Source: Eledone cirrhosa
Lineage: Eukaryota
Assembly: GCA_964016885.1 (NCBI GenBank)
Contig: OZ024740.1
Span: forward strand, 83,266,001-83,330,000
DNA: 64,000 nucleotides
Direction: 5' to 3'
Positions within the stretch are counted from its first letter, which is position 1; every line of letters starts with the position of its first letter. A program made the position numbers and the translations under genes. The notes under the pieces are model-generated. The model made no database searches and was not told the DNA's origin. It was given only the letters and a program-made list of their open reading frames with translations. Shown here piece by piece: positions 2,424 to 42,115 of this stretch.

Positions 2424-3521
2424 ATACAAATGAATATATGATAGGGATAAACACTGATACAAGTATACATGTGTGTGCATTGCAAATGACCAAGTTAGCT
2501 AGATTGAAAAATACTAATTAAAATAATACGGTTTGCCTGTCTCGATTTAAAATAATAAATCAATAAAAACAAACCTATATTGGCAATAGCCGTGATACCC
2601 GGATAAATTTTAAATTTTAAATTTTAAATTTGTTTCGCAACAATTAAGTGAAATTTCATATTCCTGTGCTCTTCACCAGGTATCCAGAAATTCGTAAGAA
2701 GACTGAGAGAAATGTGTTGTTGAACGCACATGTGTCGCAGTGTCTAGCACGTCCTATACTCGTGTCGCTAAAAATAGCAGCCGGTTTTATGGGACTAAAA
2801 ATTAGCTCAACGCATGGAGCCGAGAATATTATATATAGAGTTATAAACTCGAATAGTCTTTTACAATTAAATAGCGCAAAGAAAGGAATATTTCTGAGCC
2901 GTGTAATACAATTGATAGGGTAAACACTGATACAAGTATACATGTGTTTGCATTGCAAATGACCAAGTTAGCTAGATTGAAAAATACTAATTAAAATAAT
3001 ACGGTTTGCCTGTCTCGATTTAAAATAATAAATCAATAAAAACAAACCTATATTGGCAATAGCCGTGATACCTGGACAAATTTTAAATTTTAAATTTTAA
3101 ATTTGTTTCGCAACAATTTGTTGAAATTTCCTATTCCTGTGCTCTTCTGCAGGTATCCAGAATTGGTAAGTTTCACTTCAAAATACTTAAGAAGACTGAG
3201 AGAAATGTGTTGTTGAACGCACATGTGTCGCAGTGTCTAGCACGTCTTATACTCGTGTCGCTAAAAATAGCAGCCGGTTTTATGGGACTAAAAATTTGCT
3301 CAACGCATGGAGCTGAGAATATTATATATAGAGTTATAAACTCAAATAGGCTTTTACAATTAAATAGTTCAAAGAAAGGAATATTTCTGAGCCGTGTAAT
3401 ACAAATGAATATATGATAGGGATAAACACTGATACAAGTATACATGTGTTTGAATTGCAAATGACCAAGTTAGCTAGATTGAAAAATACTAATTAAAATA
3501 ATACGGTTTGCCTGTCTCGAT
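2424..3521. repeat. Tandem array (~2.3 units) of a ~470-500 bp non-coding repeat; a related copy lies at ~36830-37135
   Basis: AAACACTGATACAAGTATACATGTG recurs at ~2449, ~2922 and ~3424; the third unit is cut off by the Tx1 fragment at ~3523; the duplicated ORFs 2656-2958 and 3173-3460 reflect the repeat. Confidence 0.9.
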
Positions 3522-3522
3522 T

Positions 3523-4024
3523 TGGAATGTTGCCAGGTACTCACTGCCCCCTACCAAGCAGGTAATGCGATCAGTGGTACTTCCACTCTCGAGTTCTATA
3601 GCGGATTAGTGGTGGGCAAATGCGATGACGCACTCGGAGAGGTTTTGGTCCTCGACGAGGTCGAACTGACCAGTCTGTACCGGAGGACTTTCGAGCCGGG
3701 GACGATGGACAATTTCCAGAAATCGCTCGCTTGGCAGTGCTACCGGAGAGCACTGCCCGTTCGGGATAAACTCTACAGGCACGGAACTGCTGTCAGACAG
3801 ACCTGCCCAAGATGCGCACAGAACGACGAAACCGCTCTGCATGCACTTGTACGAGCATTACTGACTTATGGAGTTATGTCGAACAGCTACTGTCGCGTGT
3901 GAAACGAATCCGGCTATCGGCCGAGTCCATAGTTAAGATCGACCCGCCACCTTCCTTAGGTCAGGAAGAGCAGGACATTTTCCTCTGCCTGGTGGCCGTT
4001 GCGAAAGAGGTTATATGGTGGACC
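3523..4024 (+). mobile_element. Fragment of a diverged Tx1-like ORF2 C-terminus (zinc-finger region), truncated at both ends
   Basis: Translation MDNFQKSLAWQCYRRALPVRDKLYRHG..CPRCAQNDETALHALV and ..VAVAKEVIWWT aligns with the C-terminus of ORF 4357-7776; frameshifted; stops abruptly at (AAT)n. Confidence 0.9.
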
Positions 4025-4027
4025 AAC

Positions 4028-4093
<66 letters not shown>
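4025..4093. repeat. (AAT)n microsatellite, 3' flank/tail of the Tx1 element
   Basis: AAC followed by about 22 perfect AAT units. Confidence 0.98.
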
Positions 4094-4095
<2 letters not shown>

Positions 4096-4356
4096 TTTCT
4101 TTATTAACCACAAGGGTTTACATAAAGTAGACATTAAGGACAGTGCAGGACAATGCAGGACGGTACAAATGGGCATTTCTGCGTGTAAAAAAAACAAAAA
4201 CAGAGGATGTAACAAAAATAACAATGAAAATAACAATGAAAAATTCCCCAATAGGGGGGAGACTTCGGAGGGACATTTGTGGAGAAAGCCCAGTAAAAAG
4301 CCACAATGACCCTGACCACCAAGGCAAGTGCCCTCTCCCAGTTTTCCACCTTTAGT

Positions 4357-7300
4357 TTACAGATATATACTCAGAGTCGGCCCATTCACTCGGGCCATTC
4401 TTGCTTCTCTCACCCATCTTTCAACAAAATGCTGGGAAGAGAGCACTTCCTTCTCTACTCTGATTTTCCTTTTCAAATGAAATTTGAAAAAGTCAATCAG
4501 AGCATCACCGAAGAGGTAAGTGCTCGTCTTCAGCCCTTTCAAACGTGTCCACCATACTATCTCTTTCGCCATGGCCACCAGACAGATAAAAACTGCCTGC
4601 CCTTCCCGGCTAAAGGAGGAGGGCGGGGCAATCCTCACGATAGACTCAGATGATAGCTGGATCCGTCCTAAACGCGACAGCAGGTGTTCGACATAAACCC
4701 ACAAGTCAGCAATTTTCGGACACTGGACGAGTGCGTGCAGGACGGTTTCGTCGCCCTGCGCGCATCTCGGACATGCCCGGCTGACGGCACCTCCATGCCT
4801 GTAGAGTTTATCCCGAACTGGCAAGGCTCCTCGGTAGCACTGCCAGGCCAGAGATTTCTGGAAGTTGTCCATAGGCCCTGGCCCGAAAGTTCTTCCGAAG
4901 AGATTGGCTAGTTGATTTTCGTCGACGCCTAGAGTTTCCCCAAGTACGTCGTCGCTCTTCCCCTCCACTAATCCTCTATAGAACGCCGAGGTGGAGTTTC
5001 CACCGATCACATTGCCCGATTGGTCGAGGGCTGTGAGCGCCTGAAGACATTCCAGTCTCCAGGCGCTCCCTCTCGGTCTTCGCTTGACCCAGGACTGCAG
5101 CTCCGTCAAGGAAACGAGCTGGGGAAAAACGCGTCTAGCAAACGGCGACCACACCTGATCACCGTCGAGGAAGAGGTGGAGATGTCGTAGCCTGAGCGCG
5201 TGCCTGCGCATCATCAGCCACGGCATGCCCAGCCCTCCACGTAGCGGGTGTTGACAACAGATGGACCGCCTGACCATCGGAGCACGTCCCTTCCACAAAA
5301 AGCGAAAGAGCAAACGCTCCAGCGCAGTCAGGCGAGGCTTAGGACAGGGTACGACGGTTAGGCGGTAGCAGATGACAGACGCGATGTACGCGTTAGCCAC
5401 CTCCGCTCGACCTTTCAGGGATAGCTTCCTCTCCGCCCATTTCTGGGTGAGAGAAGCCACCCTGCTCGTCACCTCGTCCCAGTTTTTGTCCGTCTGGAGG
5501 TCCGGACCGAACCAGACCCCTAGCAATTTAACCGGTCCGTCCGTCCAGCGCCCGACGACGCTGTTGGACGGCATGGACCTGCCTCTCCAGGTGCCGAGCT
5601 GCAGGCCCACTGACTTTTCCTGGTTGATCATTGCTCCTGTCACCACTTCGTATTCTCTTAGTGTAGTGCCGATCGCCTCGATGTGTTTGGCGTTCGACAC
5701 CACTACGGTGACATCGTCCGCATATGCTGACACGGATCTTCCGCATCCTAGTTCGCGCGGGACTCCCCTCAACGTCTCCAGTTTGTGCAGTAATGGCTCG
5801 AGAGTCAATACGTACAAGAGGGACGAGAGGGGACATCCTTGGCGGACCGAGCGCATGATGTTGAACGGTTCCGACAGGTGACCGTTCACTCTCACCACAG
5901 AGCAGATGTCGCTGTGCATGGCAGCGATCCAGCCTCTGAAGACGGGCCCAAAGCCAGCCGCCCTCAGGACTGCCGCTAGGTAACGATGGTCGACCCTATC
6001 GAAAGCTTTCGACTGATCTAAATTGATCAAGGACCCACCCGTGCCAGGTTCCCTAGCTACCCTCTCTACGATGAATCGCATGAGGTGGAGGTTGTCGTGG
6101 ATGGATCTGTCGGGAATGGCGCATGTCTGCGCCTCTCCCACCAGACCACCAACGACAAGCGCCAACCTCTTTGCTAGCACCTTGGCCAAAATCTTAAACT
6201 CTGTGTTTAGCAGAGTTATGGGCCGGAAATTGTCTATGTTATCCCCCTTGTTCGGATCCTTTCTCAGCAGTGCCACCGCTCCTCGGCTCACAGAACTGGG
6301 AATTCTCCCGTTCTGTTGCCAGTTGCAGTAGACGTCCGCCAAGAGGCCTCCGAACAAGTCTGGCATCTGTACGTAAAGTTCATAGGGCAGACCATCCAAA
6401 CCAGGCGATTTACCCCTTGTGCAGCCAGTCATTGCCTCCCGTACTTCAGCGGCTGTTATCGGCTTTTCGCAACACTTCGCCTCAGTGGCCGAGAGCCGCG
6501 GCAGTCCGTCGAGGTAGACACTAAAGTCCATCCCTCTACCCGGCCCCCCGCTGCCCCCGAACAGCTGAGCGAAGTGTCGCTGAAAAGCTTCACACATTTG
6601 CCCGGGATCGAGTAGCATGCGCCCGTCGTGGTCCACCAAAGACCGGATCGTGGCTTTGTTGCCACGACGCGCCTCCGCCACTCGGGCCCATTGAACGGCT
6701 TTCGTCCCCTCGTGTCTGAGAGCACGCACCCTAGCTCTGACAACGCAGCCTTCGTGCTTTGCATTGAAGAATTGGTCAAGGGCCAATTTCGCCGCAAGCA
6801 CGTCGGTCGCAATGCCTTTGCTAAGCGCCTCGTCTAATTTTCTAACTAGTTCTCCCTCTGCTCTATTTTTCTCTATTGCTAAAGCCTTACTAAACCTAAT
6901 CGATTCTATTCTAATCGCTCTTTTCAGAGCAAACCACCACTTGTTGTTGACGATGGCCCCCGTCAACGCCCGCTTAACTAGTTCGCTAATCCGGTCTCTG
7001 TAGGCCTTGCGCACTGGTAAGGACGCGTTTAGCTTCCAGTAGCCGGGTCCTCGTCTATGAAGCCTATCTAAGTCAAGCACACAGGTCACGAATTTGTGGT
7101 CCGTGTAGCTGACTATCTTGAATTGTGGACAGCCTATGCTAGACCTATCTATTTCCCTACAAAATACTCTATCTAGATATGATCTGGATGACCCTATGCG
7201 GTTTGTCCAAGTCCACATTGGCACATACGGGAAATCCAATCGGTACCTGTCAGACAGTTCAAAACGCCTGAGCAGGTTGGTGAGGCTCTTGCACCCTCCA

Positions 7301-7776
7301 ACCCTATCCGCTAATCCCACACAGTCCCAGCGTGCATCTAAGATCCCGTTCCAGTCGCCCACTAACACTAAAGAGCGGGACGTTCCAAGAAAGGTCTCCA
7401 GACGCCGGAAGAAATCAGGCCGCCCTGCTCCTGTCGGGGCATAGACGGCCACTAGCCTGAAAGCTTGCCCGTCTCCGCTGGTCACGTCCAGCACCACCAG
7501 CTTACCCTCTGGGTCCAGGAAGATGGCCCGTATGGCGAGATCCAAACCTCTCCGAAAAAGCACAGCAACTCCTCCACCCGATCCAGGACGGCTGGGAGAT
7601 GCGTACACATCGTAGCCGCCGAAGATCGGTGCGAAGGCCCGTGCTTCGGAGATTCTGGTCTCGCTGATGGCCACTACATCTATGTTTAGTGACCTGAGGT
7701 CGTTGAGCAGGTGACCCTGCTTCCATGACGACCCCAAGCCACGCGCATTTATGCTGCCTATTCTGAGTGAGGTCAT
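4357..7776 (-). CDS. Tx1-like ORF2: APE endonuclease, reverse transcriptase and C-terminal zinc finger (1139 aa)
   Basis: APE motifs SINARGL, ISET, VYAP, GDWN, YLDR, TDH; RT motifs KSPGLDG, FRPITLLN, DQSKAFDRV, VRQGCPLS, YADD; CPRC..ETVLHALVQC; no stops. Confidence 0.96.
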   Translation of the reverse strand: MTSLRIGSINARGLGSSWKQGHLLNDLRSLNIDVVAISETRISEARAFAPIFGGYDVYASPSRPGSGGGVAVLFRRGLDLAIRAIFLDPEGKLVVLDVTSGDGQAFRLVAVYAPTGAGRPDFFRRLETFLGTSRSLVLVGDWNGILDARWDCVGLADRVGGCKSLTNLLRRFELSDRYRLDFPYVPMWTWTNRIGSSRSYLDRVFCREIDRSSIGCPQFKIVSYTDHKFVTCVLDLDRLHRRGPGYWKLNASLPVRKAYRDRISELVKRALTGAIVNNKWWFALKRAIRIESIRFSKALAIEKNRAEGELVRKLDEALSKGIATDVLAAKLALDQFFNAKHEGCVVRARVRALRHEGTKAVQWARVAEARRGNKATIRSLVDHDGRMLLDPGQMCEAFQRHFAQLFGGSGGPGRGMDFSVYLDGLPRLSATEAKCCEKPITAAEVREAMTGCTRGKSPGLDGLPYELYVQMPDLFGGLLADVYCNWQQNGRIPSSVSRGAVALLRKDPNKGDNIDNFRPITLLNTEFKILAKVLAKRLALVVGGLVGEAQTCAIPDRSIHDNLHLMRFIVERVAREPGTGGSLINLDQSKAFDRVDHRYLAAVLRAAGFGPVFRGWIAAMHSDICSVVRVNGHLSEPFNIMRSVRQGCPLSSLLYVLTLEPLLHKLETLRGVPRELGCGRSVSAYADDVTVVVSNAKHIEAIGTTLREYEVVTGAMINQEKSVGLQLGTWRGRSMPSNSVVGRWTDGPVKLLGVWFGPDLQTDKNWDEVTSRVASLTQKWAERKLSLKGRAEVANAYIASVICYRLTVVPCPKPRLTALERLLFRFLWKGRAPMVRRSICCQHPLRGGLGMPWLMMRRHALRLRHLHLFLDGDQVWSPFARRVFPQLVSLTELQSWVKRRPRGSAWRLECLQALTALDQSGNVIGGNSTSAFYRGLVEGKSDDVLGETLGVDENQLANLFGRTFGPGPMDNFQKSLAWQCYRGALPVRDKLYRHGGAVSRACPRCAQGDETVLHALVQCPKIADLWVYVEHLLSRLGRIQLSSESIVRIAPPSSFSREGQAVFICLVAMAKEIVWWTRLKGLKTSTYLFGDALIDFFKFHLKRKIRVEKEVLSSQHFVERWVREARMARVNGPTLSIYL

Positions 7777-7810
7777 GTTTAAATAGAGTGGAAAAGATGG
7801 GAAAGACCAC

Positions 7811-9904
7811 TTACCGTACTTTTGGTAGAGGAGGGATGGTTTTTACATCCCTTTTCACTTGATCGTCTGGTGAAGGGACCGTTGAATCGTCCCTTCGGCT
7901 GGTCGTCGGCTCTTCTAAGAGAATGTCTGAATATACTCTTCGATTGATGGTTCCTCCTAGGTCCCTGAAATCACCAACTGCGTTGGGGAATTTCGTTTTA
8001 ATGTTTGTGTATTGTTTCTGTGCTATTTTTAGCAGTCTTATGTTAGTTGGCGTTTTGATTGGTGCTGGTATTATGTAGTCCTGTTGTGAAATGTCTGTGT
8101 GTTCAATTATGTAAGTCATTAGTTTCTTGTTGTGTGTGTTTATTGCCGTGCATTTGTTTTTCTGGGGGTGGGGTGTGGTTCTGCTATTTTCTTGTCGTTG
8201 TTGCTGGGTGTGTGTGTTTTGTTGTTGTGTTTGCGATGTTGGTGCTTGTGGTGGTGGTGTTGAAGGTGTTGTTGGCGGTGGGGTTGTCGCCGGTGGTGAT
8301 GGTGGTGCTGGTGTGGGTGGTGATGGTGTTGGTGGTGTTGCTGCTGTGGGTCTCTTTGCAGTAGACTTTACCCTTTTCTCATTTCTTTCCTCCCTTTTCA
8401 AAGGCGACGATGCGCTGCTTCTGCGTTTGTGCCTTCTTGCGACCTTTTGCCATCCCTCTCCCACCTCACACTCCATGTCTGATTCTGTAAGGTCGGGGAG
8501 GGGTACCAGCTCCACTCTTTCACTTGTTGTTGTTGGTGATGTTTGCACTGGAGTCTCTGTTGCAGCTGCATTTGGTATTGCTGTTGTTGTTGTTAATATT
8601 TCCACTGCTGCTGCTGTCTTTGATTTCCGTGGAGTGGGTATGGGTGCCACGGACCTATCGTTCCTGGTTGCCGCTTGTCCTGTTGCTGGTAGCTGTGGAG
8701 CCGGATTCGGAAGGAGGGGGGTTTTCTCCTTTCTCAGGGTCTTCTCGTTGCAGAAGGCCCTGAGGTGAGTCTTCGATCCACAGCGAAAGCATTTCGGGCG
8801 TTTGCCCTCAACACTTATGGGCAGTTGAGTGCCGTTATCGAAGTCTATCACATCCGGGATAGCTTCGATGCACTCCTGGTTGGTTTGGATTAGCATCTCA
8901 ATGGAGGAGCCGACCCAATCTTCTCTTACTTTTTTCTGTACTTGCAGTACAGTTGTTTTGTCCTCGATTCCGACGAGGACAGATGCGGCCAGCCAAGAAG
9001 GGGTCATTCCGGGGGGGACGTGGGTCAGTTTGACCCTCACAATTTTTTGCCCGCAGTAGGAGGGCACCAACACCATTTCCTCGCTCCTTAGGGTCACTAC
9101 TGATTGGGCCTTTGCCTCCTGGGGTGTGGCAAAAAGTACGTCTACGGTGGCGTATTTTTTGCCTCGGGTGATGTGCGTTTTCCTCTGCCACACAGACCCC
9201 AAGGCTTTTTGTATTTGGGCCTCTGTGGCTCTTTCCACCCTACGGGATTTTGTACTTACTGTACGGTACGTGACCGTACAGTGCTCTTGGGTTTCGAAAA
9301 AATTTTTCGCTGCCTTGCAGATTGCTCGGTGTCCGTTCTTTGTCACCATCTTCTTCGCTTCCTCTAATTCCTCATTTGTTATGAGGATTGTTTCCAAGTT
9401 TTTCGCAATACCTGCAAATGAGATTGGTTTTTCTCTGCTGTTGTTGTTGTCGTCAGAGCTGCTGGTACTTTTGTTGCTGCAGGTACTACGACTACTGCCT
9501 CCGCCGCTGTTGCTGTGGTTGTTGTTGGTGTTGCTGCTGCTAATGCTGTTGTTGTTTATGCTGCTGGTGATGCTGTTGCGGCTGCTACTGTTGTTTTCAT
9601 TGTCACTGTTGCTGTTGTTATTACGGCTGCTACTGCTATTATTCCTGACGTCAGACGAATGAACTGGGTTTTCGTATTTCCCGCACACCTGTTTCGTCGC
9701 TGTCGTCGTCGTCGTGGAGAAACCTTGCACGCTTTGCACGAGACTTTTCTTTTCTTTCGTCGCTTGCGAAAGAGAAGGGAGGGAGAGAGACACATTTAAA
9801 GAAGGGAGGGAGAGAGACAATCTTCTCTCTGCTGTAGTGATGATTGAGGAAGAAGAAGACGGAATGAGTGGGAGTGACGTATGAAATTTCTTTTTCGTAG
9901 CCAT
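7811..9904 (-). CDS. Tx1-like ORF1 gag-like nucleic-acid-binding protein (~697 aa from the first ATG)
   Basis: Zinc knuckle CFRCGSKTHLRAFC (CX2CX4HX4C); upstream RRM-like region; N/S-rich and P/T/Q-rich low-complexity segments; first ATG at 9904 (the ORF track starts at an upstream TTG, 9937). Confidence 0.88.
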   Translation of the reverse strand: MATKKKFHTSLPLIPSSSSSIITTAERRLSLSLPSLNVSLSLPSLSQATKEKKSLVQSVQGFSTTTTTATKQVCGKYENPVHSSDVRNNSSSSRNNNSNSDNENNSSSRNSITSSINNNSISSSNTNNNHSNSGGGSSRSTCSNKSTSSSDDNNNSREKPISFAGIAKNLETILITNEELEEAKKMVTKNGHRAICKAAKNFFETQEHCTVTYRTVSTKSRRVERATEAQIQKALGSVWQRKTHITRGKKYATVDVLFATPQEAKAQSVVTLRSEEMVLVPSYCGQKIVRVKLTHVPPGMTPSWLAASVLVGIEDKTTVLQVQKKVREDWVGSSIEMLIQTNQECIEAIPDVIDFDNGTQLPISVEGKRPKCFRCGSKTHLRAFCNEKTLRKEKTPLLPNPAPQLPATGQAATRNDRSVAPIPTPRKSKTAAAVEILTTTTAIPNAAATETPVQTSPTTTSERVELVPLPDLTESDMECEVGEGWQKVARRHKRRSSASSPLKREERNEKRVKSTAKRPTAATPPTPSPPTPAPPSPPATTPPPTTPSTPPPQAPTSQTQQQNTHTQQQRQENSRTTPHPQKNKCTAINTHNKKLMTYIIEHTDISQQDYIIPAPIKTPTNIRLLKIAQKQYTNIKTKFPNAVGDFRDLGGTINRRVYSDILLEEPTTSRRDDSTVPSPDDQVKRDVKTIPPLPKVR

Positions 9905-10117
9905 GTTTTTTTGTTTAAAATGAAATTTTGGGTACAAAACCCCAATAACTGGTTATTTAACCCCGAAGGGCCAAATAACGGACAGAAAGACCCCTCTCAC
10001 GAGGAGGAGGGTGTCTTTATCAACAATTTGGTTCAAGTTTTAAACAATTTACAATTGTTTTAACGGTTAAAAATTACTATACCTTACAGAGCCGAGCCTC
10101 CGTCAACCATGGCATTC

Positions 10118-10156
<39 letters not shown>
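10118..10156. repeat. (AAT)n tract between the Tx1 5' end and the Dong-like element
   Basis: 13 AAT units. Confidence 0.97.
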
Positions 10157-10157
<1 letters not shown>

Positions 10158-11660
10158 GAGCTTGATCAAGAACAAACTTACAAATATCTAGGTGTTTGTG
10201 AAGGAGACGGAATCAAGCACTCGACAATGAGGGAAAGGATAAGGAAGGAATGTTACCGCAGAGTCAGAGCAAACTTAAGAACGGAATTGAATGCAAGGAA
10301 TAGGATCGATGCCATAAACACGCTTGCCATACCAGTAGTAACCTACAGTTACAATGTCATCAACTGGTCAAGCACAGAGATCCGTAGGCTCGATACAAAA
10401 ATCCGAAAATTCTTAACCATGCACAGAATGCATCACCCTAAGGCAGACATAGATAGAATATATCTCCCTAGGAAAGAAGGAGGACGTGGGTTAATCCAGT
10501 TAGACATTGCGTTGAAAACTGCAACAATTGGATTATCCACATATCTAAGGGAATCACATGATTGGATGATCAAACTCGTTTTGAAACACGAAAGCACCAA
10601 AAGATCATATTCCATTATAAAAGATGCACAAAGATACAGTAATGGACTACAAATTTCAGAAGTCCCATTTACTGCTGAAATGGAAAACACAGAAAAAGCA
10701 AAGCAGGTAAAAGTAACTGCAAAGAAAGAACTGCTACAGAAACTGGCTAAGAAATGGCAAGAAAAGCCTCTGTATGGAAAATACCCAGAGCGAGCTAACA
10801 ATCCTGATGTTGACAAAACTTTAACCCATCAGTGGTTGGCATCCTCTGGACTGAAATCGGAGACTGAAGGACTGATTATATCCGCACAAGATCAGTGTCT
10901 GCCAACAAAAAATTACCAAGCCAACATAATAAAAAATGGGTGCAGCCCATTATGCCGTGTATGCAAAAAACAACCAGAGACCATTGACCATATAATTTCA
11001 ATGTGCAGTCCTATAGCTCCAACCGAATACCTAAACAGGCATGACAGAGCTGCACAATACATACATTGGATAATGTGTAAGCATTTTGACCTGCCCCATC
11101 AAAAGAATTGGTGGGAGCATCAACCACCTCCCATACTTGAAAAAGATCACATCTCAATCTTGTGGAACTTTAGCATCCAAACAGACCGAAAAATAGATGC
11201 AAATAGACCTGATATAATATTGAAGGACTTTCAAAGGAGGGTATGCCTGCTAATTGATATGTCTGTTCCAATAGACAAGAATGTATCTATAAAAACATTT
11301 GAAAAATTGAGCAAGTATAAGGACCTGGAGATAGAAATTGGAAAAATGTGGAAATTGAGAACTAAAACAATACCAGTGGTTGTAGGCGCTCTGGGAATGA
11401 TACCTAAGGGGTCTAACGACTACTTATCGCAAATCCCAGGAAACCCGCGTATAGGAGAAATACAAAAGATAGTACTAATGGGAACTGCCCATATACTAAG
11501 GAAGATCCTGTCAATATAAGTACATCACAAGTCTAAACACTAAGGATGCATGTGTGAATATGTGTGTTCTTTCTTGAACATGGCGGACCTTGTTGTCTCT
11601 TGAGGTCACTGGTTGTGACTTGGTGATAACTCGTATAAACATAAAGCAAGATAAATGCAA
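10157..11660 (+). mobile_element. 5'-truncated R4/Dong-clade element, family A
   Basis: Near-identical to ~17129-18631; flanked by (AAT)n at 10118-10156 and 11660-11684; 3' end GCAAGATAAATGCA. Confidence 0.93.
10227..11519 (+). CDS. Partial R4/Dong ORF: RT thumb, CCHC zinc finger and restriction-like endonuclease
   Basis: RIYLPRKEGGRGL, CRVCKKQPETIDHIISMC, RHD, RPDIILKD..IDMSVP..KLSKY, PVVVGALG; open frame but 5'-truncated. Confidence 0.9.
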   Translation: MRERIRKECYRRVRANLRTELNARNRIDAINTLAIPVVTYSYNVINWSSTEIRRLDTKIRKFLTMHRMHHPKADIDRIYLPRKEGGRGLIQLDIALKTATIGLSTYLRESHDWMIKLVLKHESTKRSYSIIKDAQRYSNGLQISEVPFTAEMENTEKAKQVKVTAKKELLQKLAKKWQEKPLYGKYPERANNPDVDKTLTHQWLASSGLKSETEGLIISAQDQCLPTKNYQANIIKNGCSPLCRVCKKQPETIDHIISMCSPIAPTEYLNRHDRAAQYIHWIMCKHFDLPHQKNWWEHQPPPILEKDHISILWNFSIQTDRKIDANRPDIILKDFQRRVCLLIDMSVPIDKNVSIKTFEKLSKYKDLEIEIGKMWKLRTKTIPVVVGALGMIPKGSNDYLSQIPGNPRIGEIQKIVLMGTAHILRKILSI

Positions 11661-11684
11661 ATAATAATAATAATAATAATAATA

Positions 11685-13667
11685 GTGGAAACTGTTGACG
11701 AGCATTGTGTCTGAGGAAATCTACCATCACCTCCACACAAACAACTTGTTGCCGGACGAACAGAAAGGATGCCGAAAGAAGTCACGTGGTACAAAGGACC
11801 AGTTGCTTATTGATAAGATGGTAATGGGGAATTGCAGGAGGAGACACACTGATCTTGCCATGGGATGGATAGACTACAGAAAGGCATTTGACATGGTGCC
11901 TCATTCCTGGATCACCAAAAGCCTGGAGATCTTCAGGGTGGCGGATAACATCAGACAGTTGCTGGGCAGGAGTATGGGGTCCTGGGAGACAGAGTTGACA
12001 TCAACTGGAGTATCCTTGGGAAGCGTGAAGATCAAGAGAGGTATCTTCCAGGGAGATAGCCTGTCCCCTCTGTTGTTCGTCCTTGCCCTGATGCCCTTGA
12101 CCATTATGCTGCGAAAAGTGAGAGCAGGATACAAGTTGGGAAGGGGAGAGCTTACCATCAATCACCTCCTCTTCATGGACGATCTTAAGCTCTTCGGGAA
12201 AAGTGAGAAGGAGTTGGATGTGCTTGTTGACACTGTCCGTATTTTCAGCAGTGATATATGTATGCAGTTTGGTATTGGTAAATGTGGAGTCATTGTGATG
12301 AGGAGGGGTAGGTTGAGCAGAAGTAACGGGATCCAGATACCAACAGGTGAGATGATAAAGGAAATTGACTCTGAGGAAGAATACAAGTATTTGGGCGTTC
12401 TTGAGGCTGATGGCATAAAGAACAAAAAAATGAAGGAATTGTTAAGAACTGAATACATTCGGAGAGTAAGGAGCAACAGCAGAAATGCCATAAGCGCAGT
12501 AAATTCCCGAGCTGTGTCTATTATTAGGTACAGTGCGGGAATTCTGAGATGGAATGTTGCTGAACAAAAAGAAATGGATAGGAAGACTAGGAAGCTATTG
12601 ACTATCTACAACATGTTCCACAAGAGGAGTGATGTCGATAGACTCTACCTAAGGAGATCTGAGGGTGGAAGAGGTCTTATCAGCATAGAGGACTGTGTTC
12701 AGATGGAGAAAAACAACCTATACAAATACGTGACCTATAGTAAGGAGCCAATGCTCAGAGCTGTACTGAAGGAGGGGACAGTAGGCCAGGGGATATCCAA
12801 GGAGGAAATAACATCAAGGAGGAAGAGCAGCCTTAAGGGAAAATCGCTTCATAGTACCTTCTTTGAGAAAACTGAATTTAGAGATCCACAGACATGGAAC
12901 TGGTTGAGAAGAGGAGACCTCAAAAAGGCTACAGAAGGAATGCTAATGGCTGCGCAGGAGCAGGCCCTCAAAACGAAGTGGTTGAAGCACCATATCTACA
13001 AGGAGGAGGCTAGCCCACTGTGCAGGATCTGTGGAGAGAGAGAGGAGACTGTGGCTCACATTGTGTCCGAGTGTAAACACCTAGCCCAGACCCACTATAA
13101 GGGCTGGAGACACGATGTGATGGGCAGGGTGATCCACTGGCACCTGTGCAAAGTAAACAATCTACCACATTCTGAGAAATGGTATGAGCATAGGCCAGAG
13201 GCGGTGATGGAGAACAGTCAGGTGAAGGTGCTGTGGGATTTTAGGATACAGACGGACAAAAAACTGGAACACAATAGACCTGACCTGGTGGTTGTGGACA
13301 AAGAAAAAAGATCGTGCCTGATTGTGGATGTGGCCTGCCCGTTCGACACGAGAGTGCAAGAGAAGGAGAGGGAGAAAATTAACCGATACCAGGACCTAAA
13401 GTGGGAGGTGAAAAGGATTTGGAACTGCCATGAAGTCAAAGTGATCCCGATTGTCATAGGCGCACTGGGGACTATCTCCAAAGGTTTCCAGGGATGGTTA
13501 AAGAAAATCGGCCCCTTCACGCTTTTTGGAACGCTTCAAAAGGCATGCTTGCTTGGAACGGCAAGAACCCTCCGATACGTCCTGAATATCTGAGGCTGCA
13601 GGTATTGGCTTGATATTCAATCCAACGGACTTTCCAGTTAACCAACATCAATGACTGAGATTCAAGG
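11685..13667 (+). mobile_element. 5'-truncated R4/Dong-clade element, family B (more GC-rich, diverged from family A)
   Basis: Starts directly after (AAT)n; ends TTCAAGG followed by AATAACAATAAC(AAT)n at 13668-13699. Confidence 0.93.
11695..13593 (+). CDS. Partial R4/Dong ORF: RT, CCHC zinc finger and RLE (632 aa open)
   Basis: [74 protein letters not shown]. Confidence 0.92.
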
Positions 13668-14546
13668 AATAACAATAACAATAATAATAATAATAATAAG
13701 ATAAGGGAAGAAGACGCACGAGGTGGTAGAATGTCATGAAATCGGTCCCGTAAGTTTTTGATTTTTAACATATTTAAATCAATTGTGAAATAACAATTCT
13801 TAGTACAAATGTTGCATAATCCACCGAATCAGGTCCCATAAAGTTTCGGATCCATATTATATTGTTGTATCGCTCCCATATTCAATTTTGTATTATATAT
13901 TTTGTATTCAAAAAAGAAAATGATTATAAATGGGAAAAAAAATACCCTCTGTCTACACTATATAGAACAGCCAAATAACCGCAATTTCACCAACACCAGA
14001 AGCTTGAAACACCACCTATCCCATCACACTAAATATAACAGCCAGATAACGGCAATTTCACCAGCATCATAATAATAATTACTATTATTATTGTCTCAAA
14101 TTTTAAAAAAAATGTTTAATTCCAATTTTACGGGAATATGTCAACACAAAATATAATAAAAATGTATATTAAACATACGAACACAAACTCATAGATACTA
14201 CATATCAGTAACCACAACGCCACCGCTGCCACCACCCCACCTCATCCATCATTGCTACCACTATCCCATCGTCGCCGCCACCACTCCTTCAATGCTAACA
14301 CCACTATTCCCCTGTTAACTTGAGAGAGAAAGGGGAAGGTGGCGGTATCACTAGACAAGGGAGAAGCTAGCAAAAGATATAAATAGATTGACTTAGTGAC
14401 CTGGCCACCGGCCAAACGTCAACATCAACAACTATGGGACTGCTGGCTCACCCCTTCCTCAGCAACAATATAAAAGCCCCGGCACCACCACCGACATAGC
14501 CAACAACAATAACAGCCAACTACAACAAAAAGTATATTATATTATT

Positions 14547-14600
14547 GTAATGCACTGGGTGATTGCTGGCCTTGTGCCTGGAGTGGAGACAATTATTAAT
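14547..14600 (+). mobile_element. 3' fragment of the tRNA-derived SINE family
   Basis: GTAATGCACTGGGTGATTGCTGGCCTTGTGCC..GAGACAATTATT matches the SINE 3' ends at ~28094-28143 and ~41683-41727. Confidence 0.8.
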
Positions 14601-14681
14601 AATTTCATTCTTAAGCCACGCAATGCTCACATTAAGGAACCACTCATGATAATAACAATTTAAAAAAACAACAAAAAGAAA

Positions 14682-17600
14682 ACCCCGTGACCAAGAAATA
14701 CCGGGATGGCGGCCGGCGGGGAATAGCCGTGTCTCTAGGGGAGAACGACCCCTCTAGTCTTGATTGACACTCGTTCTAGAAGTGGTAACACGAAATGATT
14801 ACCCCTTGGCGGATAAGGATAAAACGCGACAAAATAAAGTAAATGTCTAATGATAAAATCTCATACCGGATCGGCAGTCACCCGGGTAAAAAAGGGCCGC
14901 GTCCCTCAGAGAGGAACCAGACTGGGGTCGAAAAATCAGCTAATGGTTCAAACCTTCCCATCACTTCGGAGATGGAGACCTCCCATAACCGGAATACTCC
15001 TACGGTTGGCCCTCCATGCTCACCACCAAGAAATCCAAAGAAAAAGAGAGAAAAATGGTCAAGGGAAGATCATAAAGAAGTCCTTGAGGCTTTCTACACT
15101 GCCATGTACTACCCATCAAATACATCGAATACAGAACAGACATATATCAACTGGAAAAAGAAACATCCCGAAAACCGAGGCTATATTGACAGTAACAGAC
15201 TAGCCAATATACGAAGAAATATTGTAAGAAAAAAGTTACTAACTGATATAGAAATTGATCAGATCAAGCTATTAGCACAAAGTCAGCGAAGGGAAAATGA
15301 AACATGTGTCAGTGAAAACGAGGTAAACTGTAACACTTCGAATCCCAGGGTTGGGGCGGAATCACTGGCAACAGAACAAATTAAAGAAAGGATCGAAAAA
15401 GTGGAGGGAGTGCATGCTCAGGATGAAACTCCAAATGAAAATAATGAGATCGTAAATGATAAAGAAATGAATGAGAATGAACTTGCCAACTTGAAGGATG
15501 AAATTATGATCGAATGGATGAAAATGAAAGAATCTGACATGGGTCAACGAGACACCCTCCCTAAGATCCAGAACTCCAAACAGAACCAAAAGATAATACA
15601 CAAGACTAACATAATTCTCAAAAACATTATCATCACAAACAAACTAAACATTACTTATTTAAATCATCTATATTATGCATCGGCTAAAGTCACCACTCAC
15701 TTATGTGGAGACAAGATGAAAAAACAAAGGAATTCCCACAAGAAATCTACTTGGCAAGAGAACATCAATCGCCAAATAAATCTTCTCCGATCTGACATAG
15801 AAATTTTAACAAACTATAAAGTAGGTGAACATGTTAAACAAACTAAACTTAGAAAATTGAAAAAAAGTACAGTATAATATCAACATGTGACATAGACATG
15901 CTGATAGAAATAATCAAGCAAAAAGTGTCGGCCAAAGCTGCTCGTATAAGGCGCTTTGAAAAACGATCTAGATTCTATAAGGACAATAATATGTTCAAAA
16001 GCAACCAAAGAAACTTCTACAGAAAAATTGGTAAGTCAACAATAACTGCTAAATCAATACCACCCAAGGAGGAAATGCAAGAATTCTGGGAAAAGATCTG
16101 GGCCGAAGAAAAAGTTCATAACATACATGCCCCATGGATAGACAGACAAATGAAAGATACAGATCACCTTGAGGAACAAACATGGGAAAATATAACAGTT
16201 GAACAGTTGCGCTTGGCTCTAAGAAAAACCAGCAAATGGAAATCCCCAGGAAAAGACAAAATACAAAACTTTTGGATAAATGCCTTCACAGAGTCTCATG
16301 AGCTGTTAGCCCAAATTTACAATGAAATAGTTAAGGAGCCAGAAAAGATACCATCATGGCTAGTTAATGGCATTACATTCCTGCTTGCAAAGAATGATGA
16401 GACAAACAATCCCAAAAATTACAGACCGATAACTTGCTTTACCACAATGTATAACATTTTAACATCAGTCCTAACTGAATACACATATGACCACCTGATA
16501 ACAAATGACCTATTTCCCATTGAGCAGAAAGGGTGTAAACGAGGCTCATATGGCTGTAGGGATCAGCTTCTGGTTAACAAAATGATACTGGAAGATTGTC
16601 ATAATAGACACCAAAATCTATCGATTGCTTGGATAGATTATAAAAAAGCATTCGATAGTTTGCCACACAGTTGGATTGAAAAATGTTTAGAGATTTTCAA
16701 AATATCCCCCGTTGTCAGGAGTTTTTTGTCATTCATTATGAAGACATGGAAAACGACACTCCTTTTGAATAGTGAAACAAAATCACTGGAAGCTGGAGAA
16801 GTTAATATTAATTGTGGAATTTTTCAGGGTGACTCTTTATCACCGCTTTTATTCTGCATCGCACTTATACCATTAAGTAAAATGCTCAATGAAACAAAAC
16901 ATGGATATAAAGTCTATGACAAAACCATTAATCACCTGTTCTACATGGATGACCTGAAGCTATTTGCAAAAAATGATGAACAATTTCAAGGGCTATTATC
17001 TACTGTGAAGCAGTTCAGTGATGACATTAAAATGGAGTTTGGACTAGATAAATGCGCCAAAGCAACGTTCACCAGAGGAAAGCTGCTGAAGAGTTCAGAC
17101 ATTAGTCTTGATCGGGGGAACGTGATAAGAGAACTTGATCAAGAAAAAACTTACAAATATCTAGGTGTTTGTGAAGGAGACGGAATCAAGCATTCGACAA
17201 TGAGGGAAAGGATAAGGAAGGAATGTTACCGCAGAGTAAGAGCAATCTTAAGAACGGAATTGAATGCAAGGAATAGGATCGATGCCATAAACACGCTTGC
17301 CATACCAGTAGTAACCTACAGTTACAATGTCATCAACTGGTGAAGCACAGAGATCCGTAGGCTCGATACAAAAATTCGAAAATTCTTAACCATGCACAGA
17401 ATGCATCACCCTAAGGCAGATATAGATAGCATATATCTCCCTGGGGAAGAAGGAGGACGTGGGTTAATCCAGTTAGACATTGCGTTGAAAACTGCAAATA
17501 TTGGATAATCTACATATCTAGGGGAATCACATGATTGGATGATCAAACTCGTTTTGAAACACGAAAGCATCAAAAGATCATATTCCATTACAAAAGATGC

Positions 17601-18635
17601 ACAAAGATACAGTAATGGACTACAAATTTCAGAAGTCCCATTTACTGCTGAAATGGAAAACACAGAAAAAGCAAAGCAGGTAAAAGTAACTGCAAAGAAA
17701 GAACTGCTACAGAAACTGGCTAAGAAATGGCAAGAAAAGCCTCTGTATGGAAAATACCCAGAGCGAGCTAACAACCCTGATGTTGACAACACTTTAACCC
17801 ATCAGTGGTTGGCATCCTCTGGACTGAAATCGGAGACTGAAGGACTGATTATATCAGCACAAGATCAGTGTCTGCCAACAAAAAATTACCAAGCCAACAT
17901 AATAAAAAATGGATGCAGCCCATTATGCCGTGTATGCAAAAAACAACCAGAGACCATTGACCATATAATTTCAATGTGCAGTCCTATAGCTCCAACCGAA
18001 TACCTAAACAGGTATGACAGAGCTGCACAATACATACATTGGATAATGTGTAAGCATTTTGACCTGCCCCATCAAAAGTATTGGTGGGAGCATCAACCAC
18101 CTTTCATACTTGAAAAAGATCACATCTCAATCTTGTGGAACTTTAGCATCCATACAGACCGAAAAATAGATGCAAATAGACCTGATATAATATTGAAGGA
18201 CTTTAAAAAGAGGGTATGCCTGCTAATTGATATGTCTGTTCCAATAGACAAGAATGTATCTATAAAAACATTTGAAAAATTGAGCAAGTATAAGGACCTG
18301 GAGATAGAAATTGGAAAAATGTGGAAATTGAGAACTAAAACAATACCAGTGGTTGTAGGCGCTCTGGGAATGATACCTAGGGGTCTAATGACTACTTATC
18401 GCAAATCCCAGGAAACCAGCGTATAGGAGAAATACAAAAGATAGTACTAATGGGAACTGCCCATATACTAAGGAAGATTCTGTCAATATAAGTACATCAC
18501 AAGTCTAAACACTAAAGATGCATGTATGAATATGTATGTTCTTTCTTGAACATGGCGGACCTTGTTGTCTCTTGAGGTCACTGGTTGTCACTTGGTGATA
18601 ACTCGTATGAACATAAAGCAAGATAAATGCAACTG
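14682..18635 (+). mobile_element. Near full-length R4/Dong-clade element, family A
   Basis: GC-rich 5' UTR, one long disrupted ORF, 3' UTR as in 11520-11660, (TAA)n tail at 18636-18656; 5' boundary approximate. Confidence 0.92.
14843..18491 (+). pseudogene. Disrupted R4/Dong polyprotein (N-terminal Myb-like motif, RT, CCHC, RLE)
   Basis: KWSREDHKEVLEAFY N-terminal motif; [24 protein letters not shown]; frameshift in the A-run near 15865, TGA at 17341 (TCA in the sister copy), 1-bp deletion near 18378. Confidence 0.9.
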
Positions 18636-18727
18636 TAATAATAATAATAATAATAAATGTGAAGACTAAAATACAAAGAGGACTCGATAAGGATAAATAT
18701 ATATCAAATATATAAGAACCATAGGGC

Positions 18728-27953: not shown

Positions 27954-28138
27954 GAGCGGTGGATTGGCAGTATCGGTTGTGGGTCGGACGCCATGCTTTC
28001 CAGAATAGTTAGGTCCCTTTACGGTCTGAGTTCAAAACCCGCCGAGGTTCACTTTGCTTTTCATCCTTACGGGGTCGATAAAATAAAGTATCAGTAATGC
28101 ATTGGGTAATTGCTGGCCTTGTGCCTAAAGTAGAAACA
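27954..28138 (+). mobile_element. tRNA-derived SINE with a Meta-type central domain (octopus OK-like)
   Basis: B-box GAGTTCAAAACCC; core CTTTCATCCTTACGGGGTCGATAAAATAAAGTA; 15-bp TSD ATTATTTCTT(T/A)TGCA at 27939-27953 and 28139-28153. Confidence 0.9.
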
Positions 28139-28729
28139 ATTATTTCTTATGCATTTTAATTAGCTTCCTTGCAATAAATCTCATGCTCATACCTAGGGAT
28201 CTATATCGATAGTGTAAGTCATGGTTTGTTTATTAATTTCTGTAATGTACACAAGATTTGCTTGGTGTGAATAATATGATTTTAAACTGCTTTATCGATG
28301 AAATATTCGGATTCTCCGAAAAGTGAGTAAAGCGTGACATTTGTAATATCCACAGTGTTAACTCTCCTAAAGTACTGAATATATACGGAATGGAAATAAA
28401 ATTGGAACACTAATTACTTTTGATAATTGATATAATATTATTTAAATGGTGCAACATCACATACCCACAAGTCCCACATGCACATGTACACAAAAATATA
28501 TTAATCATATGCCACCAGTACTTTGAGAAAACAACACCATACTTCGGGACAGGAAATATCAAAGGACCAAAATAACGGTGTAACACTTTGTTCCACCATT
28601 ATGTTTTTCTGATTTTTCTGTTCAAATCCTAGCTGTTTGATGGGGGTCATAGCTTCTAAATAATGGGTATCACCGAAATTTAATATGAATAAATTAAGTT
28701 AATTTTAAACTGCTGACCTACACGTCTTG

Positions 28730-36768: not shown

Positions 36769-36805
<37 letters not shown>

Positions 36806-37689
36806 TATATTGAGTTAGAAACTAAAAATAGTCTTTTACAATAAAATAGCGCAAAGAAGGGAATCTTTCTGAGCCGTGTAATACGATTGAATATATGAGA
36901 AGGATGAACACCGATACAAGTATACATGTGTTCGAATTGCAAATGACAAAGTTAGCTATGGTGAAAAATACTAATTTAAAACAATATGGTTTGCCTGTCT
37001 CGATTTAAAGTAATAAATCAATAAAAATAAAATTAGTATTAAAATTAGTATTCTTCAAACTAGCTAACTTGGTCATTTGCAATTGGAACACATGTATACT
37101 TGTATCGGTGTTCATCCCTCTCATATATTCAATTGTGTATATATATATATATAAAGGTTTGGAGTTGGAAGGCCAAAACAATGCAGGCATGGATATAGAA
37201 TATAAATGCAAATGCAAAAGATATTGTTGACAATTAGTCTTTTACCTTAAATTTATTTAAATATCCTCAATTTTCGAGATAATATCTCTTCTTCGGAAGG
37301 AAGTAATGGGGTTAATCCAGTGTTCTAATTAGCTTGCCAAGTCATGCTGACAGGAAATGGTATAGAGGTTCCATTCTATCTCTAATGTCAAAGAGTGAAG
37401 ATTAGGTGGATAAAGAGTTGTCTTCCTTTAAAAGGGTTTTGTACATGTATGTTTAAGTGTATGGGAGAATACGTGAAGGCGTAAGTATGTGTGTCTGTGT
37501 GTGTGAGTGTGAGAGGATATGTCTATATGTAAATGTGGTGGCTAGATGTTCTATCATGTTAAAACTGGTCTTTGTGTATGTATGTGTGAGAGAGAATAAG
37601 TAGAGGTGCGAGCGTGTGTGTGAGGGGGGGTGTAAGTGTGGGGCTAGGTGTTCTATCGTGTTACAAATTGAAATAGCCGACTGCCCACT

Positions 37690-38810
37690 TTCTATCACCT
37701 CGTCAAGACCCACAAGAATAGTACTAAGACACAAATAAGACCCATAGTCTCTAGCATAGAAGGACCCCTATACAAAACTCCTGGCTCCTCTCCCAGGTCT
37801 TCAAGCCTCTACTCTCCACCTTTCCCGGGCATGTCAGTAGCTCCGACGAGGTCATATGTAGACTACACCAACTCCAGCCAGAACAACTTAAATTAAATAG
37901 ATACGCCTTTAGCCTCGACGTTGTCTCCCTCTACACTACAGTCCCCGATCATCCAGCTGTCGATTTATTGACGGACTGCGTGGTCGCAGAGAACATCCAC
38001 TACTACGGGCTCCATCCGACGGACATACACCAACTTTTGTCCTTCACAGTGGACAACACGTACTTCACCTTCTACCACCACACATACAGACAGACAACAG
38101 GATTACCCATGGCATCCAGCCTATCGGGCCTGCTGACCATAACCTATATGAACCAGCTAGAATGCCGAGCCCTCAACACTTGCCATTCCCATACCTTCTT
38201 CACCCGATATGTAGATCACACACTCATCCTTACATCATCTCGTGAGAAGGCGGATAAAATAAATACGACATTCTCCAGCATGGATGCCAGTATAAAGTTC
38301 ATCATGGAACACCCTGATGACCGCGGATCCCTATCCCTACCGGACTTCCAACTCAGGGTAACAGAGGAAGGCAACATCCACACCTGCTTCTATAAAAAAC
38401 CGCCGGCAGGGATCTGTTCGTACATTTCAGATCGGCCCTCCCAGCCAGTGCTAAGTTCGGATACATAAGGAACGAACTAACACGTATACGCAAGAAATAC
38501 ACCGACGCAAGAGACCGAGACACACACACACCACACATTTCCTGGAAGTACTCAAACTGAACGGATACCAGACGTCCACCGCGAACCGTGCCAGAAACAA
38601 CAGAGGACACCACACCCGAGGCACTAACACCTGCTTCTTGAAGCTCCCACACTTCAGTGACGAAACAACAACAGCCATCCGTAAAGCTATCAGACGAGAG
38701 GGACTAGATATCCAACTAGCCCACTCAGGACCTTCTCTACGCGGACAGCTATCCAAAAGCCACTCCCCAGACATGACAGCCACAGCAGGCTACCCAACTG
38801 CCCCATCAAC
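37690..38810 (+). mobile_element. Penelope-like element RT remnant, truncated at the start of GIY-YIG
   Basis: IRPIVSS, FSLDVVSLYT, YRQTTGLPMASSLSGLL, TRYVDH, IKFIMEHP, YKKP; frameshifts; followed by three 38-bp tandem units at ~38805-38915. Confidence 0.87.
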
Positions 38811-40875: not shown

Positions 40876-41540
40876 ACAGAGAAAAACGAGGAAATTTCGT
40901 TTACATATTCTTTCTACTGTACATACTCTGCCTGTGCATTATGCATTCAGTGCATTATTTGGTACCAACACCCACGAGTATTTCATCGTATTACCTACAC
41001 TATATATATATATGTGTGTCTTTGTGTATGTGTGTGTGGGGGGAGGGGTATTGTTAATTAATCCATTATAGAGTATATAATATGTGTGTTAGTAACATTG
41101 ATCATTTGACGTAGGGTAGTTCTACTTTTATGATACCACGTTGGAGTGTTTCCTACGGTGTGTGGTAAACATGATAGATAAGAAGGCAGTATCTTTGAAT
41201 TTTACGGTATTCTGTTTATCACGTAATCGCTGTTACTTGGATGGCATTTACTATTTAATATTCCAACATGATTTTATCAGAAGGGTCCTTACTTGCATCT
41301 TAACTATAATAAAGAAACGAGTGCGGCACTGCGTCCAGAATATATTTGTTTATGCCGTTTGTAAAATAAGTTGGATTACTTGGAATAAATAAAGAATGAA
41401 TATTACATAATGTATGTGCTAAATTTCGTAACTCATGATTAAATATAGTTAATTTTATTGCTTATTTAACGATTCACTTCTTTAAAGTGTTCAAATGTCA
41501 AAACTTCCGGTTAGCGCCCGTTATATTATAACACTTATAA

Positions 41541-41727
41541 GGGCGGTGGATTGGCGGTATTGGTAGAGGGTCGGAGGCCATGCTTTGACGTATAGAGTTA
41601 CGGCCCTTGCCATTCTGAGTTCAAATCCCGCCGAGGTTAACTTTGCCTTTCATCCTTACGGGGTCGATAAAATAAAGTACCAGTAATGCACTGGGTATCT
41701 GCTGGCCTTGTGCCTAACGTAGAAACA
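41541..41727 (+). mobile_element. Full-length tRNA-derived SINE (same family) with a 21-bp TSD
   Basis: GGCGGTGGATTGGC head, GAGTTCAAATCCC B-box, Meta-type core; perfect TSD GTTATATTATAACACTTATAA at 41520-41540 and 41728-41748. Confidence 0.93.
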
Positions 41728-42115
41728 GTTATATTATAACACTTATAAAAACATCGCATATATTTCCGTCGCTAATTTTCTCCTAATGCAGTTTATATAT
41801 AATATCGTCTTTTTTTCATGTATCATGGATTACTTGACTGACTGCAGAAGAGAGTGTAACACAGTCTCTCTTCAATTTCTGTGTGTATTGTCAATTTCGA
41901 TTTTATTTGACATATCATATCTACATGCATATATACTTGCGTATAATATCAATATGCACACTACACATTCTAGCAGAAAAACTACCCGAACGGTGGTTTT
42001 TTCCTCTATTAAATATCAATGATGTCCGTGCTGATCCGATATAGCCGCTGACGCGCTTAGGCACCGTTTCTTCACTGCTCATCTAGGCTAAATTCAAACG
42101 TGCTGCCTTCTTATA

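Follow-up and report, generated by a model that had tools for sequence, protein, structure and literature searches.

LINEs and AAT tracts in the analyzed window

The window analyzed here is a stretch of 64,000 nucleotides of the octopod Eledone cirrhosa (GCA_964016885.1, contig OZ024740.1, positions 83,266,001 to 83,330,000). Between its positions 3523 and 18656 lie retrotransposons of two lineages of long interspersed nuclear elements (LINEs): Tx1-type elements with an apurinic/apyrimidinic-type endonuclease (APE), and R4/Dong-type elements with a restriction-like endonuclease (RLE). There are five (AAT)n tracts, each beside an element and together of about 60 units (Table 1). The original prediction had placed tracts at junctions 4025, 10118, 11660, 13668 and 18636, and all five are there, the one at 13668 being imperfect and the one at 4025 beginning with AAC. 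As it also stated, the Tx1 element reads into (ATT)n and three RLE elements of two families read into (AAT)n.

Table 1. Tracts, elements and coding regions in the window (ORF, open reading frame; RT, reverse transcriptase; SINE, short interspersed nuclear element)
Feature	Position	Strand	Remarks
Tx1B internal fragment, older second Tx1 family	3523..4024	+	ORF2 residues 902-1077, frameshifted, without 3' end
(AAT)22 preceded by AAC	4025..4093 (AAT from 4028)	+	3' flank of Tx1A, read by Tx1A as (ATT)n
Tx1A, full-length young Tx1-type LINE, 6024 bp	4094..10117	-	two ORFs
Tx1A 3' hairpin	4100..4118	-	4-bp stem, loop CUUGU, then AAUAAA
Tx1A ORF2, 1139 aa	4357..7776	-	unbroken; APE endonuclease, RT, zinc finger
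Tx1A ORF1, 697 aa	7811..9904	-	one CCHC zinc knuckle
(AAT)13	10118..10156	+	in-phase 5' flank of Tx1A; also 5' flank of truncated DongA
DongA copy 1, 5'-truncated	10157..11659	+	end of RT, CCHC, RLE
(AAT)8	11660..11683	+
DongB, 5'-truncated, second RLE family	11684..13667	+	RVT_1; RLE
Imperfect AAT/AAC tract, ~10 units	13668..13704	+	first units recur in many DongB copies
DongA copy 2, full length	13705..18635	+	ORF from 14846, broken
(TAA)7	18636..18656	+	joined to host repeat natively bearing 3-4 units at this point
SINE copies	28094-28144, 41540-41730, 62513-62563		copy near 41703 with ~21 bp duplication

In a background sample of 200 kb, taken from 20 preset places in the genome, tracts of at least four units cover 0.22% of the sequence, and (ATT)4 starts occur at 2.2e-4 per strand-base. 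With such a coverage, five tracts at five element junctions are not due to chance.

The ORF2 of Tx1A matches Pfam families PF03372, PF00078 and PF13966, possesses all six APE catalytic motifs, and has human L1 ORF2p as its best match among solved structures (E 5e-52), while no Pfam family matched ORF1. The N-terminal APE, the RT and the C-terminal zinc finger, together with the separate zinc-knuckle ORF1, are features of the Tx1 clade (L1 group), and so is sequence-specific insertion with target-site duplication, the latter being seen in truncated Tx1A copies only. The family is young: 40 copies are 100% identical across the last 407 bp, and 30 of the 39 youngest copies traced upstream are full length, starting at the same 5' base. 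Some Tx1 subfamilies share the Tx1A ORF2 and 3' end and change their 5' half at about position 2259, just before ORF2 (L100, L163, L355, L359 and others); at least four different 5' heads are present, resembling the swapping of 5' modules in L1.

The fragment at the left end of the array is 75% identical to Tx1A (63-68% by tblastn) and has a zf-RVT match. Other Tx1B copies continue into ORF2 at the point where this one meets the tract; since it lacks a 3' end, this is not an insertion junction, though the fragment meets the first tract in a Dong-like direction.

Both Dong families have a single ORF encoding RT, then CCHC, then a PD..D/ExK nuclease, as in R4/Dong. Their probable assignment to R4/Dong follows this domain order and the TAA target, the nearest full-length relatives being unnamed. 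The two DongA copies are 97.0% identical over 1544 bp, and DongA and DongB share 39.8% of amino acids. The best matches of DongB among solved structures are R2 proteins, with the RLE stretch included in the alignment. The ORF of DongA copy 2 is interrupted by a frameshift near 15860, by a stop at 17341 and by further breaks downstream. No ribozyme resembling that of hepatitis delta virus (HDV) was found in DongA or in 20 Dong 5' ends by Rfam (chance hits only) or by a home-made descriptor never tried on a known ribozyme. Dong 5' untranslated regions that are 70-97% identical keep one short 5' motif with possible GGGA/UCCC pairing (window 13705-13765; L331-L350), and that of DongA contains a fixed piece of the 3' end of the SINE described below (window 14547-14613; also L035, L108).

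Orientation of insertions across the genome

The genome of 3.0 Gb was searched for further copies, Tx1A 3' ends being counted with a 23-base 3' motif. Among the 3581 Tx1A 3' ends, the first 100 by position comprise 84 with perfect (ATT)4 and 16 near-ATT flanks, and genome-wide none runs into AAT repeats. CTT units occur in two of these 100 flanks, one being a CTT tract. The 4919 DongA and 8379 DongB 3' ends are followed by repeats in the opposite reading: all 100 listed for DongA are of the AAT type, and of 100 listed for DongB 99 are of the AAT/AAC type and one is AAG. Thus, random or either-orientation insertion of other copies, which the original prediction had named as evidence against it, was not observed, and the orientation rule is strict across the counted copies.

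The two lineages also cluster. In the first 56.9 Mb of contig 1, which hold 55 Tx1A and 172 Dong ends, the distance from a Tx1A end to a Dong 3' end is at most 200 bp in 10 cases (after jitter, 0.2 on average and three at most), and 23 Tx1A ends have a Dong end within 10 kb (7.9 on average after jitter).

These data bear on the explanation of the array as an assembly artefact in which repeats were joined at AAT tracts. No mapped reads or contigs were seen across a tract (repeat positions are skipped in the mapping, and one raw run had no match), which leaves room for this explanation. However, the window contains no N and belongs to a 443-Mb contig, the truncation points are unique, the DongA copies are 3% apart, and misjoins would not obey a strict orientation rule or create duplications at many other places. 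The same types of junctions, with target-site duplications, recur at thousands of places, and an artefact is scarcely credible.

Two side observations concern other tracts. (AAG)n/(CTT)n tracts are found beside AAT or replacing it for both lineages (L047, L068, L079, L080, L085, L311, L137). Moreover, the end of an unrelated repeat adjoins ATT tracts (L276:2090 and 4903; L151), and this repeat is possibly a further user of the same pad.

The repeat is a target of insertion

Tracts following the 3' ends could be RNA-encoded tails of elements that insert anywhere, the arrays arising by chance in a repeat-rich region. The conserved AAC/AAT units at the end of DongB speak for this explanation: these first tail units recur across loci and therefore are likely copied from RNA. 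Moreover, LINEs commonly carry microsatellite tails, as in RTE (PMC9115989; here and below, papers are cited from their accessible parts). The 5' flanks, however, largely refute it. At 63 of the 84 raw Dong 5' breakpoints, the 40 bases upstream include (AAT)3 or a longer tract. Among the others, 20 have no AAT tract, many of them being internal deletions or duplications, and one has ATT, a SINE end meeting DongB. Full-length Dong elements have 1411 5' ends, and of 100 listed (classified by eye) 86 follow AAT, seven AAG and seven other sequence, in variable phase. Dong duplications are unreadable, as the tract breaks early at 15 ends only.

Target-site duplications can be read in Tx1A copies chosen for an imperfect 3' flank, which were tallied by hand. 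Of 35 apparent truncations, seven were removed as non-junctions (subfamily breakpoints or rearrangements). Among the 28 kept, 16 have a duplication of 8-19 bp that starts with ATTATT, includes non-repeat letters and is accompanied by no extra tail. All 15 distinct duplications inspected by eye are preceded by a C or a T. In a separate set of 40 Tx1A copies picked for having no 5' partner, six proved to be full length, 14 belonged to subfamilies with another 5' half, one ran off an edge and 19 were truncated. On the 5' side these 19, all with a long 3' tract, have ATT in eight cases, CTT in one, and no tract in ten, five of which are fused to a truncated Dong.

Two of these results make the picture of tract targeting less clean, namely the 12 of 28 truncated copies without a duplication and the ten tract-free copies. 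Because none of the latter shows a duplication of the sequence beyond the tract, they are better explained by 5' deletion than by random-site insertion with a long tail. Given that duplications begin with ATTATT, that 96 of 100 full-length Tx1A have a tract at the 5' side as well (see below), and that Tx1A and Dong cluster 50-fold over jitter, random insertion with RNA-encoded tails is very improbable. (AAT)n is an insertion target for both lineages, not merely a tail.

The 5' junction of full-length Tx1A

Full-length Tx1A copies join their upstream tract in a uniform manner. Among the first 100 of 2572 Tx1A 5' ends, 96 follow perfect (ATT)5 in exact phase and four a near-perfect one. Interruption of the tract after two units is rarer at the 5' side (15 of 2572 ends) than at the 3' side (144 of 3581; p 8e-20), and 14 of these 15 broken 5' tracts are long tracts with one base changed. 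Tracts of four units or fewer are similarly distributed, with none among 40 at the 5' side and 10 among 53 at the 3' side (13 rows fetched for short tracts removed). Of 28 truncated copies, 16 repeat the variant of their 3' flank at the 5' side, as expected for a duplication, whereas one of 15 non-tandem full-length copies does so (p 0.0012). Overall, 23 full-length Tx1A have an imperfect 3' flank: 14 of them show a pure, non-mirroring 5' tract, eight a duplication of the whole spacer, and one an ordinary duplication. Three other Tx1 5' heads start in phase too (13 of 16, four of four, and one of two copies), two of them preceding related ORF1s (38-63% identity).

In R2, RNAs that keep upstream target sequence give uniform 5' junctions through annealing of cDNA to the target (PMC3774820). 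The in-phase, uniform junctions of Tx1A resemble those of R2 with upstream target in the RNA, and hence we infer a leader. As the shortest ordinary 5' tract in 40 copies has five units, its length is put at about five (AUU) units, and we lean, from the junctions, to the reading that full-length Tx1A RNA carries such an (AUU)n leader.

Several points weigh against the leader. A rare variant with an ATG unit (five copies) shows no clustering among 73 5' regions compared in a tree, and no ribozyme was found in Tx1A with its leader, Rfam giving chance hits only and the home-made HDV descriptor being untried on a known ribozyme. Moreover, the eight full-length copies with a duplicated spacer have it, at 24-60 bp, next to the 5' end of a neighbour, and unequal crossing-over could do likewise. 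Spread of leader variants by descent was also considered; since the ATG-unit variant does not cluster, it is unsupported.

Tx1A copies follow one another head to tail, with spacers that are imperfect, identical and about 50 bp long, at two places (G000:C1:441.098-441.144 Mb; C2:188.05-188.08 Mb), with at least six copies at C1:441.1 Mb and four at C2:188.06 Mb. The first unit of one Tx1A array is 3'-truncated at position 2114 (L319).

Pure in-phase 5' tracts might instead stem from recombination after insertion, gene conversion or unequal crossing-over, or from a leader of only one or two units. The identical spacers of the tandem arrays at C1:441.1 Mb and C2:188.06 Mb agree with this, as do the lack of clustering of the leader variants and one copy (L177) whose 5' flank is unlike the prediction from its 3' flank. 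Nevertheless, the in-phase pattern is seen in 96 of 100 isolated young copies, the absence of short tracts at the 5' side (zero of 40 against 10 of 53 at the 3' side) and the in-phase start of unrelated 5' heads speak against it, and in the array led by a 3'-truncated copy, joined at the same ATTATT, priming fits better than crossing-over. Such an origin of the 5' tracts is distinctly unlikely.

Relatives of Tx1A

The best named relative of Tx1A ORF2 is a protein of Argonauta hians (74% identical). A tree was built from 50 of 114 RT rows, Dong and seven of nine long rows being removed and no named Tx1, Kibi or Koshi sequence being included; a quick tree with a Dong outgroup had been dropped, as long branches met. 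In this unrooted tree of 50 RT stretches, Tx1A, the argonaut protein and an unnamed sister group are joined at 100/100. The unnamed sister group (P0004-P0082) is large; it comes from ENA assemblies, has 47-54% RT identity to Tx1A and forms clusters of up to 732 members.

Some Tx1-like relatives on metagenome contigs lie beside small nuclear RNA (snRNA) genes, either U1 (L197, L201) or U2 (L199, L204, L207, L198, L202), while two lie beside (TC)n, one on both sides and one at the 5' side only (L219 being a contig with such a flank). An ATT flank was found at none of these metagenome relatives, all of which are distant (24-41%). The U2-associated elements split into two groups of the tree, and a 99/99 branch, in the same unrooted tree, places Tx1A on the same side as the two (TC)n-flanked elements and away from the snRNA-flanked ones. 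This suggests that the Tx1A lineage may be a sister of Kibi and Koshi; by its target it is not a member.

A tRNA-type SINE with the Tx1 3' end

A very abundant SINE, about 185 nt long and tRNA-like at its head, carries a 3' hairpin with the loop CUUGU, as in Tx1A, Tx1B and Tx1C. The stems differ in sequence and are still paired, in 80, 75 and 77 of 82 SINE copies at three pairs and in 10 of 10 Tx1B copies at four; the Tx1A stem was taken from a separate fold, as the counting pattern did not catch Tx1A. ATT follows the 3' end of the SINE, and its insertions are flanked by duplications of 11-21 bp at ATTAT; one of 16 bp lies within a DongA tail. Thus, this SINE likely borrows Tx1 proteins, Tx1 being the partner LINE suggested by the common hairpin.

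The sites of the SINE can be as short as ATTAT, hence relaxed, and this is the best argument that LINE targeting owes its sharpness to RNA pairing as well as to the nuclease. Base pairing between repeat-carrying RNA ends and the nicked target may indeed account for a part of the Tx1 specificity; for this reason the convergence of two endonuclease folds on the repeat, as in the original prediction, is a candidate explanation within an otherwise supported interpretation. In a stronger form of the pairing explanation, the Tx1 endonuclease would do no more than nick at T/A with a relaxed, L1-like preference, and the site would be picked through pairing between an (AUU)n tail of the RNA and the nicked primer; the RNAs, and not the protein folds, would then have converged. 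AAUAAA lies seven bases before the element end, and 3' processing would thus land in the downstream tract. The SINE sites, the 144 of 3581 Tx1A ends at two-unit sites, several short Tx1A copies with ATTATT at the 3' side and a tract-free 5' side (L120, L123, L124, L139), and the low-rate use of CTT/AAG tracts are also in line with it. On the other hand, readable duplications have no extra tail between element and duplication (L092, L096, L138, L175), the endonuclease of Tx1L is sequence-specific in vitro (PMC1950540), and the nearest target-labelled relatives of Tx1A sit in (TC)n. We regard the convergence of RNAs only as somewhat unlikely.

Proposed mechanism and growth of the pad

We consider it quite likely that the array is a real pile-up of LINEs in one (AAT)n tract, with priming on opposite strands and with the 5' end of full-length Tx1A joined by annealing of the leader. 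L1 nicks at TTTT/A (PMC1950540); in a similar way, the nick made by Tx1A would fall between T and A or between T and G on the AAT strand, a position read from the C or T that precedes the duplications. Dong would nick the ATT strand, as opposite orientations combined with target-primed reverse transcription imply opposite priming strands. Transcription of Tx1A would start within the upstream tract, yielding the (AUU)n leader, and the copy of this leader would anneal to the target repeat and join the 5' end of a full-length element. Each insertion would then split one tract in two and add units by duplication, leader, Dong tail and later slippage, the new tracts serving as landing sites for both lineages and for the tRNA-type SINE.

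The self-perpetuating growth of the array, as originally predicted, is indirectly supported. Each insertion leaves a tract at both sides, and the host repeat at the right flank bears 3-4 units in four other copies versus about 60 in this array. This host repeat (18636..18656) is likely the seed tract, and slippage may add AAT units as well. A point against this scenario is the fusion at the left end of the array, which makes it impossible to reconstruct the empty site. In the 200-kb sample, five of the ten tracts of six or more units adjoin Tx1, Dong or the SINE.

Comparison with known target-specific elements

Kibi in (TC)n and Koshi in (TTC)n are Tx1-clade LINEs of fish, and crocodilian Tx1 families are found in (TTCC)n/(TTTC)n (PMC4494074, PMC3812793). 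Tx1A is similar to Kibi and Koshi in having two ORFs, an APE and a microsatellite target that is pyrimidine-rich on the sense strand; its (TTA)n is one base from the (TTC)n of Koshi, and it uses CTT tracts at a low rate. It differs from them in the (ATT)n target, the invertebrate host, the thousands of copies and the in-phase 5' junction without duplication.

Dong elements of the R4 clade are known in TAA repeats of the silkworm, a mosquito and the snail Biomphalaria (PMC3812793, PMC3774820). The elements described here share with them the single ORF with RT, CCHC and C-terminal PD..D/ExK, the TAA target and the variable 5' junctions. They are unlike known Dong in that no HDV-like ribozyme was detected in DongA and 20 Dong 5' ends by the descriptor mentioned above, itself untried on a known ribozyme, and in that at least two families, 40% identical, have a common target and a short 5' motif. 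In other respects, what is seen for Dong was to be expected. In octopus, Dong-R4 is abundant and was recently active, and L1-Tx1 families and hotspots are described, the accessible parts of these reports naming no target (PMC13282606; PMC9115989).

The convergence of APE and RLE elements and the sharing of one repeat on opposite strands have precedents. Keno (Tx1, APE) and Utopia (RLE) exemplify parallel evolution towards one site of the U2 snRNA gene (PMC4640811). They have the same 3' flank, one orientation and a gene as the target, whereas here the orientations are opposite and the target is a microsatellite, within one genome and in mixed nested arrays.

TRAS1 and SART1 belong to the R1 clade. 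They insert in opposite directions into (TTAGG)n of the silkworm (PMC7265360); both are of the APE type, telomeric and with poly(A) tails, whereas the present pair combines APE with RLE, is interstitial and has no poly(A). As for the proposed 5' joint, some R2 RNAs retain 9-36 nt of the upstream 28S target, and the leader is cut by an HDV-like ribozyme, as shown in vitro (PMC3774820). R2 is thus an RLE-type element with a ribozyme-cut leader, and Tx1A an APE-type element with a putative leader, in which no ribozyme was found.

The searchable literature yielded neither a Tx1 element that targets ATT/AAT nor a cephalopod pair of Tx1 and SINE; Repbase, supplements and, for the target, the labels in Fig. 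3 of PMC4494074 are outside this coverage and could list such a target. The accessible parts of PMC3747384, PMC4758252, PMC11203168, PMC8869645 and PMC3124438 contain nothing on this point. With this coverage, what appears to be new is the (ATT)n target, the use of its opposite strands by Tx1A and Dong within mixed arrays, the probable joining of the 5' end by a leader, and the SINE partner. Later Tx1 surveys reportedly include further microsatellite targets.

Other features of the window

A host repeat is tandemly duplicated at 2424-3523, with a period of about 480 bp and 92% identity, and is related to 36800-37149. An RT fragment lies at 37755-38465 (Pfam RVT_1, E 7e-9). At 56487-57740 one frame weakly matches GIY-YIG (E 0.03), and a Penelope-like origin is conceivable.

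Implications

Taken at its widest, and with chances that we put slightly below even, the picture is as follows. An octopod Tx1 lineage, sister to Kibi and Koshi, would target (ATT)n and carry repeat units at both RNA ends, with an R2-like 5' annealing undescribed for an APE-type LINE. Together with Dong on the opposite strand and a tRNA SINE borrowing Tx1 proteins, it would form a genome-wide community of more than 16,000 counted LINE ends. This community would keep adding to its own landing pad and would rank among the main sources of long AAT microsatellites and of LINE hotspots in octopods.

In practical terms, AAT microsatellite markers of octopods are to be used with caution, as they often adjoin Tx1, Dong or the SINE (half of the longer tracts in the sample above). 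For the Tx1 clade, (ATT)n is an added target, and for an abundant octopod SINE a likely partner LINE can be named. The landing pad may also explain how the Dong-R4 and L1-Tx1 hotspots described in octopus (PMC13282606) arise. Moreover, a natural experiment is provided by APE and RLE proteins that work within a single nucleus on opposite strands of the same trinucleotide repeat and have left thousands of young copies. Joining of the 5' end is the least understood step of LINE integration, and Tx1A gives two outcomes, a duplication if truncated and a seamless in-phase junction if full length; this makes the annealing model directly testable and bears on full-length insertions by LINE-based gene writers.

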